The notes beneath the pieces were generated by a model. That model saw only the letters and a program-made list of their open reading frames with translations, searched no databases and was not told the DNA's origin. This document shows, one piece after another, positions 52,832 through 54,934 of a stretch of 64,000 nt of DNA. This stretch comes from Escherichia coli (GTDB lineage Bacteria > Pseudomonadota > Gammaproteobacteria > Enterobacterales > Enterobacteriaceae). Each line of letters begins with the position of its first letter. Position 1 is the stretch's first letter. Position numbers and translations under genes: made by a program. The stretch lies in the NCBI RefSeq assembly GCF_013315695.1, contig NZ_CP054353.1, one strand, 5' to 3'.

Positions 52832-53695
52832 ATGGCATTCCTCACTTCATCTGATAAAGCACTCTGGCATCTCGCCTTACCCATGATTTTCTCCAATATC
52901 ACCGTTCCGTTGCTGGGACTGGTCGATACGGCGGTAATTGGTCATCTTGATAGTCCGGTTTATTTGGGCGGCGTGGCGGTTGGTGCAACGGCGACCAGCT
53001 TTCTCTTTATGCTGTTGCTGTTTTTACGCATGAGCACCACCGGGCTGACTGCGCAGGCTTATGGTGCCAAAAATCCTCAGGCATTAGCCCGTGCGCTGGT
53101 GCAACCGTTGCTGTTGGCGTTGGGGGCCGGGGCGTTAATTGCGCTGCTGTGTACGCCGATTATCGATCTGGCGCTGCATATTGTTGGCGGTAGTGAAGCA
53201 GTCCTGGAACAGGCGCAACGCTTTCTTGAAATCCGCTGGTTAAGTGCACCGGCGTCGCTGGCGAATCTGGTATTACTTGGTTGGTTACTCGGTGTGCAAT
53301 ATGCCCGTGCGCCAGTAATTTTGTTAGTGGTCGGCAATATCCTCAACATTGTGCTGGATGTCTGGCTGGTGATGGGGCTGCATATGAACGTGCAGGGCGC
53401 GGCGCTGGCGACGGTTATTGCGGAATATGCAACATTGCTGATTGGTCTGCTAATGGTGCGTAAAATCCTCAAACTACGCGGAATCTCCGGCGAAATGCTG
53501 AAAACTGCCTGGCGAGGAAACTTCCGTCACTTGCTGGCGCTTAACCGCGATATCATGCTGCGCTCGCTGTTGCTGCAACTCTGTTTCGGCGCGATCACTG
53601 TACTTGGCGCGCGACTGGGGAGTGACATTATCGCTGTTAACGCGGTTCTGATGACGCTACTCACCTTTACCGCCTATGCGCTGGATGGTTTTGCC
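52832..53695 (+). pseudogene. dinF: MATE-family efflux protein DinF, 5' part (interrupted by IS1)
   Basis: Start MAFLTSSDKALWHLALPMIF; reading frame runs into IS1 at 53696. Confidence 0.85.
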
Positions 53696-53710
53696 GGTAA
53701 TGACTCCAAC

Positions 53711-54214
53711 TTATTGATAGTGTTTTATGTTCAGATAATGCCCGATGACTTTGTCATGCAGCTCCACCGATTTTGAGAACGACAGCGACTTCCGTCCCAG
53801 CCGTGCCAGGTGCTGCCTCAGATTCAGGTTATGCCGCTCAATTCGCTGCGTATATCGCTTGCTGATTACGTGCAGCTTTCCCTTCAGGCGGGATTCATAC
53901 AGCGGCCAGCCATCCGTCATCCATATCACCACGTCAAAGGGTGACAGCAGGCTCATAAGACGCCCCAGCGTCGCCATAGTGCGTTCACCGAATACGTGCG
54001 CAACAACCGTCTTCCGGAGCCTGTCATACGCGTAAAACAGCCAGCGCTGGCGCGATTTAGCCCCGACATAGCCCCACTGTTCGTCCATTTCCGCGCAGAC
54101 GATGACGTCACTGCCCGGCTGTATGCGCGAGGTTACCGACTGCGGCCTGAGTTTTTTAAGTGACGTAAAATCGTGTTGAGGCCAACGCCCATAATGCGGG
54201 CTGTTGCCCGGCAT
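53711..54214 (-). CDS. insB: IS1 InsB
   Basis: 167-aa ORF identical to copy 1. Confidence 0.9.
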
Positions 54215-54408
54215 CCAACGCCATTCATGGCCATATCAATGATTTTCTGGTGCGTACCGGGTTGAGAAGCGGTGTAAGTGAACTGCAGTTGCCATGTTTT
54301 ACGGCAGTGAGAGCAGAGATAGCGCTGATGTCCGGCGGTGCTTTTGCCGTTACGCACCACCCCGTCAGTAGCTGAACAGGAGGGACAGCTGATAGAAACA
54401 GAAGCCAC
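54133..54408 (-). CDS. insA: IS1 InsA
   Basis: 91-aa ORF identical to copy 1. Confidence 0.93.
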
Positions 54409-54463
54409 TGGAGCACCTCAAAAACACCATCATACACTAAATCAGTAAGTTGGCAGCATCACC

Positions 54464-54934
54464 GGTTTTGCCTACGCGGTTGAAGCGCATTCCGGTCAGG
54501 CGTACGGTGCGCGCGATGGTAGCCAGTTACTGGATGTCTGGCGGGCAGCGTGCCGCCAGTCGGGGATTGTAGCGTTACTGTTTTCGGTGGTTTATTTGCT
54601 GGCAGGGGAACACATCATTGCGTTGCTGACGTCGTTAACCCAGATTCAGCAGCTGGCTGACCGCTATCTTATCTGGCAGGTGATTTTGCCGTTGGTCGGC
54701 GTCTGGTGTTATCTGCTCGACGGCATGTTTATAGGTGCAACGCGCGCCGCCGAAATGCGTAACAGTATGGCGGTGGCCGCCGCAGGTTTTGCGCTGACGC
54801 TCCTTACGCTGCCGTGGCTGGGGAATCATGGTTTGTGGCTGGCATTAACCGTCTTTCTGGCGTTACGCGGGCTTTCTCTGGCGGCTATCTGGCGGCGTCA
54901 CTGGCGCAACGGTACCTGGTTTGCCGCAACGTGA
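54464..54934 (+). pseudogene. dinF: DinF 3' part
   Basis: GFAYAVEAHSGQ... continues the DinF frame after the IS1 target duplication. Confidence 0.85.

Follow-up and report, generated by a model that had tools for sequence, protein, structure and literature searches.

Is the gene for DinF, a transporter of the MATE family encoded next to lexA, still able to function in the strain described here, how did it come to be interrupted, and does the interruption reach back to lexA itself? These questions are raised by positions 52832-54934 of a 64,000-nucleotide stretch of Escherichia coli DNA (contig NZ_CP054353.1 of RefSeq assembly GCF_013315695.1; the window, in what follows), where dinF is divided by a copy of the insertion sequence IS1. 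Very probably, dinF was knocked out in the lineage of strain MSB1_4I when an active IS1A copy inserted itself into codons 286-288. The parts of the interrupted gene and the boundaries of the element are as follows.

52832-53695, plus strand: dinF 5' fragment, codons 1-288, with predicted transmembrane segments (TM) 1 to 8 and MatE repeat 1 at residues 17-178; pseudogene 'missing C-terminus' according to the NCBI Prokaryotic Genome Annotation Pipeline (PGAP)
53687-53695, no strand: left copy of the target-site duplication, GGTTTTGCC, present as a single copy in the empty sites of strains AF3 and MS 21-1
53696-54463, minus strand: complete IS1 (IS1A type), matching the copy at 28116-28883 at 768 of 768 positions; PGAP 'IS1-like element IS1A family transposase, programmed frameshift'
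53696-53718, no strand: IS1 right inverted repeat (IRR), GGTAATGACTCCAACTTATTGAT, agreeing with the other end at 18 of 23 positions
54441-54463, no strand: IS1 left inverted repeat (IRL), GGTGATGCTGCCAACTTACTGAT when read on the minus strand, from the comparison of the ends
54464-54472, no strand: right copy of the target-site duplication, GGTTTTGCC, from direct sequence comparison
54473-54934, plus strand: dinF 3' fragment, codons 289-441 and the stop codon, with predicted TM9 to TM12 and a partial MatE repeat; PGAP pseudogene 'missing N-terminus'

The element is exactly 768 bp long, and its transposase runs opposite to the direction of lexA-dinF transcription. Its ends are imperfect inverted repeats, the right one being labeled as such from its position relative to insA and the established anatomy of IS1, and the plus-strand right edge of the block, at 54463, reads ...ATCAGTAAGTTGGCAGCATCACC. 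Immediately outside both ends stands the same 9-mer, a direct repeat that agrees at all 9 positions, and the agreement stops after 9 bp in both directions; two 9-mers at fixed positions would match this well with a chance probability of 4^-9 (~4e-6). In frame, the repeat corresponds to dinF codons 286-288 (Gly-Phe-Ala), and the 31-nt sequence that spans the insertion junction is GCTGGATGGTTTTGCCGGTAATGACTCCAAC. IS1 typically cuts its target with a stagger of 9 bp, which would generate a duplication of this kind.

Excision of the element in silico, joining 52832-53695 to 54473-54934, yields 1326 nt that encode 441 codons and a stop, with no internal stop codon. The restored protein is that of the intact dinF genes of close relatives; it contains Pfam MatE in two stretches and matches the NCBIfam equivalog NF007690 with 905.5 bits (cutoff, 409) over positions 1 to 440 of 441. 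This full-length match to the family appears only after removal of IS1, the gene as encoded being split, and dinF in the window is a pseudogene of the DinF (MATE) family. Both the structure of the insertion and the restored frame were read directly from the window, and we found no point that contradicts the structural interpretation. The original prediction had named the gene as dinF and described it as split by a second IS1 copy with a perfect 9-bp duplication, and it had proposed excision in silico as a check. Split and duplication are seen with base precision, the excised frame is continuous over 441 codons, and the NF007690 score and the two MatE repeats bear out the name; the predicted frame junction, between ...YALDGFA and GFAYAVEAHSGQ..., is exact, and the limits proposed for the gene, 52832 and 54934, coincide with the dinF start and stop assigned by PGAP in the corresponding RefSeq record. 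The label of second copy is likewise correct, the other lying at 28116-28883. With regard to the start of the gene, an in-frame ATG is located 18 codons 5' of the PGAP start, inside the hairpin between lexA and dinF that is described below (52778-52831; open reading frame 52778-53776), and this is the ATG used in older, 459-aa annotations of DinF; the NCBIfam model, with its 441 positions, fits the shorter start at 52832.

The inserted element encodes the parts expected of a transposition-competent IS1.

54133-54408, minus strand: insA, 91 aa, zinc ribbon and helix-turn-helix of the HTH_Tnp_IS1 type (PF03811, 76 bits; PF12759, 107 bits)
53711-54214, minus strand: insB' frame, DDE catalytic domain (PF03400, 261 bits)
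54151-54159, minus strand: programmed -1 frameshift motif of IS1 (A6C), TTAAAAAAC, from the motif and a modelled slip

When a -1 slip is modelled at the A6C motif, the two frames fuse without interruption into an InsAB' transposase of 232 aa (53711-54408), and the insA and insB' frames both match NCBIfam NF033558. Since the InsA and InsB' domains, the A6C motif and the 232-aa fusion are all in place, the copy in dinF is complete and apparently active. A promoter-like site, CTGCCA-16-TATGAT, is located at 54456-54429 on the minus strand, overlapping IRL, and would correspond to the known IS1 promoter in IRL. Length, ends, reading frames, duplication and empty site, as tested in the window and its relatives, are all those of an IS1 family element.

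The distribution of the allele was determined in 5,426 complete RefSeq E. coli genomes. The interval 52832-54934 occurs in a single piece and at 100% in one of these, MSB1_4I (rectal swab, Australia), which is also the only genome in which a 120-nt probe for the left junction was fully matched in one piece; a 120-nt probe for the empty site was matched in 5,424 of the genomes. The exact left junction had no match in a metagenome contig collection. Over 64 kb, the window and the RefSeq record of MSB1_4I (NZ_LR898874.1) differ by 7 mismatches and one gap, and MSB1_4I is either the same strain as the source of the window or a sister to it; in that record, PGAP annotates 'dinF, missing C-terminus', an IS1A transposase, and 'MATE transporter, missing N-terminus'. 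A genome holding about 40 identical IS1 copies offers ample opportunity for a repeat to be misplaced during assembly, and the 7 bases and 1 gap that separate the window from the RefSeq record suggest that the two differ in polishing. However, a misplaced repeat would not give a perfect, in-frame duplication of just the 9 bp that IS1 produces, nor two base-exact junctions, and the insertion is present in the window as well as in the RefSeq assembly of MSB1_4I. Because of that precise, in-frame duplication, we consider an assembly artifact exceedingly improbable.

Strain AF3 (blood culture, United Kingdom; NZ_OZ547117.1) has an intact dinF, encoding WP_001330146.1, and an empty site. AF3 was identified with a 24.8-kb query from the flank. 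Its nearest flanks are 100% identical to those in the window over 5,149 bp on the left side and 7,861 bp on the right; the left and right alignments have just the 9 bp of the repeat in common, the difference at the locus being IS1 plus 9 bp. When the whole window is compared, AF3 shows 12 substitutions in the left 53,695 bp (four of them in 23S rRNA) and 0 in the right 7,861 bp. MS 21-1 (NZ_CP146670.1) also has an intact dinF, with 100% identity. Judged from these comparisons, the insertion is younger than the IS1 copy at 28116-28883 and younger than the split from AF3, and neither fragment of dinF shows decay since the insertion, all of which supports a recent event. The empty site of the relatives and the rarity of the allele are direct observations, and the empty site in 5,424 genomes, the identical flanks of AF3 and the confinement of the junction to MSB1_4I indicate together that the event is real, recent and strain-specific. 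Recency had been proposed from the clean duplication, with a suggestion that closely related isolates be compared: that comparison revealed the empty site in AF3 and MS 21-1, and about 13 kb of identical AF3 flanks, a junction found in 1 of 5,426 genomes and the identity of the IS1 copies uphold the proposed age. At least 40 places that match IS1 were found in each of MSB1_4I and AF3, compared with 19 in MS 21-1, which is consistent with an expansion of IS1 in the MSB1_4I/AF3 lineage.

The genome searches also returned matches of other kinds. Of 22 genomes that covered at least 80% of the interval, 21 proved not to carry this insertion, their matches having joined an intact dinF to a nearby IS1. 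One of the 21 is SW071610, where the IS1 lies at the 3' end of dinF. In the other record that was inspected, that of E. coli 98202, the IS1 lies between zur and a DUF2713 gene (locus L003, 4000-4767), in an AT-rich gap 1.2 kb downstream of dinF; about 20 other genomes with a joined match like that of 98202 may carry IS1 in the same gap, which could be a local hot spot for IS1 or a clonal marker. Of the 5,426 places matched by the empty-site probe, one belongs to a plasmid record, and one genome contributes two. A plasmid may have taken up a chromosomal lexA-dinF segment, or the segment may have been duplicated.

The consequences for the DinF protein can be considered next. A hydropathy scan of the restored protein detected about 12 hydrophobic segments, with residue 288 at the end of the eighth and four more to follow; these TM boundaries come from a crude scan and not from a structure, a PDB sequence search with DinF having found distant MATE relatives only (best, HvAACT1; E = 8e-25), and matches of the HvAACT1 type were not used to place them. 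The open frame of dinF enters IS1 and meets a stop at 53774-53776, and translation would end after 26 foreign, IS1-encoded residues to give a product of 314 aa. Such a protein would possess TM1 to TM8 of the 12-TM MATE fold and would be cut off from TM9 to TM12, which represent 153 of the 441 residues, and no transport would be expected of it. We infer the loss of transport, the polarity and the effect on fitness. Loss of DinF function, which the original prediction had asserted in stating that the transporter was inactivated, is a strong inference because the 314-aa product lacks TM9 to TM12. The 3' fragment, of 153 codons, has neither a start nor a promoter of its own, the first in-frame start being a GTG at 54587. 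Classically, an IS1 insertion exerts strong polarity whichever way it is oriented. Startless and located behind a polar element, the 3' fragment would be silent. The next gene, yjbJ, is a separate unit, and a dinF-null phenotype is to be expected, because no gene downstream relies on the lexA-dinF transcript.

What that phenotype might be is suggested by work on other strains. Deletion mutants of dinF show slightly lower fitness in bile salts, and expression of dinF protects against H2O2, reactive oxygen species and mutT-dependent mutagenesis (PMC3327717); overexpression of DinF increases the tolerance of E. coli Nissle to deoxycholate (bioRxiv 10.1101/2025.08.01.668021). The protection against bile salts and oxidative stress known for K-12 and Nissle DinF is expected to be lost here, and the absence of DinF could slightly reduce tolerance to bile salts, deoxycholate and peroxide. 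We suggest that the isolate and its clonal descendants be treated as natural dinF null mutants.

Whether the loss was of benefit to the strain is a separate question. It is conceivable that the loss of DinF, or of its SOS-induced expression, was selected in a hospital-associated, IS1-rich lineage, and such a view can call on a second, independent IS1 that touches dinF, in strain SW071610, and on the influence of DinF on levels of reactive oxygen and on mutation rate in some backgrounds (PMC3327717). The insertion in SW071610, however, swaps only the last four residues, and PGAP calls the gene intact; loss of dinF costs fitness in bile salts (PMC3327717), the environment of a rectal isolate; and the occurrence of the allele in 1 of 5,426 genomes, with the site intact in 5,424, is the pattern of a transient mutation that is unselected or mildly harmful. 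We give an adaptive origin little credence; the insertion is most likely a side effect of IS1 activity, neutral or mildly harmful, and not an adaptation. Two considerations qualify our account of a dinF knockout acquired by transposition in the MSB1_4I lineage: some activity or toxicity could in principle be kept or acquired by a truncated MATE protein of eight TM, and the insertion, with a single isolate as its carrier, may date from laboratory culture rather than from the host. We nonetheless regard insertional knockout of dinF by IS1A as the best account of the locus.

The remaining question is whether the insertion is felt upstream, in lexA. The gene order in 51500-56000 is dgkA, lexA, dinF, yjbJ, zur, and three features 5' of dinF are relevant.

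52151-52759, plus strand: lexA, intact, 202 aa (TIGR00498 equivalog, 289.5 bits; cutoff, 110.95; WP_000646078.1)
52106-52142, plus strand: two LexA (SOS) boxes in the lexA promoter, CTGTATATACTCACAG at 52106-52121 and CTGTATATACACCCAG at 52127-52142, from a pattern scan
52770-52808, plus strand: terminator-like hairpin with a 13-bp stem, 8 G-C pairs and a 4-nt loop, followed by TTTGTTTTT, from a terminator scan

The pattern CTGTATAT-N5-CAG has 2 matches in the 64 kb, with 0 expected from shuffles, and PMC3009722 lists the second of them as the lexA/dinF box. The start of dinF lies 72 bp downstream of the end of lexA on the same strand. In K-12, tiling arrays detected lexA and dinF as one continuous transcript induced by ultraviolet light (UV) (PMC3009722), and the pair is likewise treated as an operon in PMC3327717. 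The hairpin that separates the two genes has a folding energy of -27.7 kcal/mol (z = -2.8), and, because a single lexA-dinF transcript was reported in PMC3009722, it is probably a partial terminator or attenuator that is leaky. The claims that dinF is SOS regulated and is co-transcribed with lexA both agree with this picture, the first through the two boxes at 52106-52142 with lexA directly 5' of dinF and the second through the published K-12 data (PMC3009722, PMC3327717).

Co-transcription opens the way to a regulatory interpretation, in which the insertion would act mainly on the lexA message, by altering its 3' end, its stability or its processing, and, through LexA levels, on the dynamics of the SOS response. 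The single UV-induced transcript (PMC3009722) means that the long transcript must change, and the promoter in IRL aims back at lexA, making convergent or antisense transcription conceivable. Nevertheless, the insertion leaves the lexA coding region and the SOS boxes intact, with the same sequence as in relatives; the strong hairpin and T tract directly after lexA can set a lexA-only 3' end; IS1 lies 937 bp downstream of the end of lexA and 887 bp downstream of the hairpin; and a clean deletion of dinF left lexA::GFP and recA::GFP (green fluorescent protein fusions) unchanged, whether induced or not (PMC3327717, where the data are not shown). We consider a mainly regulatory effect quite improbable, and the suggestion in the original prediction that 3' processing of the lexA operon may be altered is unsupported, given the untouched lexA, the intervening hairpin and the lack of effect of dinF deletion. 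SOS-induced transcription from the lexA promoter would still yield normal LexA, and only the dinF portion of the lexA-dinF transcript should change. Since IS1 lies antisense to the operon, SOS-induced read-through would run antisense to insA, and one can imagine DNA damage modulating the element by this route or antisense RNA from IRL retuning the shut-off of the SOS response. Both notions are highly doubtful, and no observation in this analysis requires either effect. Disruption of dinF alone, with an unaffected lexA, remains our interpretation.

Other features of the window were noted in the course of the analysis. The IS1 copy at 28116-28883, in the opposite orientation to the one in dinF, is common to the window and AF3, in the same place, and sits between lysC and a decayed island in which IS4 divides a nucleotidyltransferase pseudogene and a slipin gene contains an internal stop. 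No target-site duplication borders this IS1 copy, its flanks reading ...AAGTGATTT and AATAGCGTC..., and the matches of most other strains begin only at its edge, a configuration that suggests an IS1-mediated deletion or rearrangement rather than a simple insertion. Downstream of zur, a gene of the DUF2713 family (yjbL/yjbM region; 56134-57138) is an intact open reading frame of 334 codons both in the window and in AF3; the RefSeq records of MSB1_4I and MS 21-1, each of which has one single-base gap in its alignment to the window, annotate it as 'frameshifted'. We assume that the frameshift is linked to that gap and is probably a difference of sequencing or polishing, not a biological one. An Rfam scan matched no RNA family within the dinF-IS1 interval, 52832-54934. 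Outside it, Rfam matched three naRNA4 elements, derived from repetitive extragenic palindromes (6796-6873, 40135-40205 and 44362-44432), the lysC lysine riboswitch (30363-30559) and STnc430 (32454-32602), and the window begins, at 1-1911, with the 3' part of 23S rRNA and 5S rRNA; all of these are ordinary for this chromosomal region.

In practical terms, the dinF::IS1 allele, found in 1 of 5,426 complete genomes, is a handy clone-specific marker and a further data point on the continuing activity of IS1 in a human-associated lineage rich in this element; beyond such strain bookkeeping it has little import and raises no new mechanism or question. No paper describing the allele was found in the literature searched, and it is already known as an annotated pseudogene in RefSeq NZ_LR898874.1.

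Comparison with known systems places the locus on familiar ground. The order dgkA-lexA-dinF-yjbJ-zur, the two SOS boxes and a DinF that scores 905 bits once IS1 is removed are shared with the lexA-dinF operon of K-12, from which the window differs in that the gene is split after residue 288 and that LexA and a truncated DinF are encoded. The Keio-derived dinF deletion mutants of Rodriguez-Beltran et al. (2012; PMC3327717) resemble the strain in an expected dinF-null state with lexA intact; unlike a clean deletion, the allele in the window retains a stub of 314 aa and an apparently active IS1 with a promoter convergent on lexA. The closest parallel within dinF is SW071610 (NZ_CM129858.1), in which an independent IS1A (locus L004, 3007-3774; 766/768 identity to the window IS1) is inserted in the same orientation with a 9-bp duplication, CGGTACCTG; there, by contrast, the element lies in the last five codons, and FAAT is replaced by a six-residue tail, VMTPTY, in a gene that is still called intact. 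With other chromosomal genes of E. coli and Shigella inactivated by IS1A, the insertion shares the length of 768 bp, the imperfect 23-bp ends, the insA/insB' arrangement with its A6C motif and the 9-bp duplication; the mechanism is alike, only the target, codons 286-288 of dinF, is particular, and dinF::IS1 is an ordinary, textbook insertional knockout by IS1 and not a new kind of feature.

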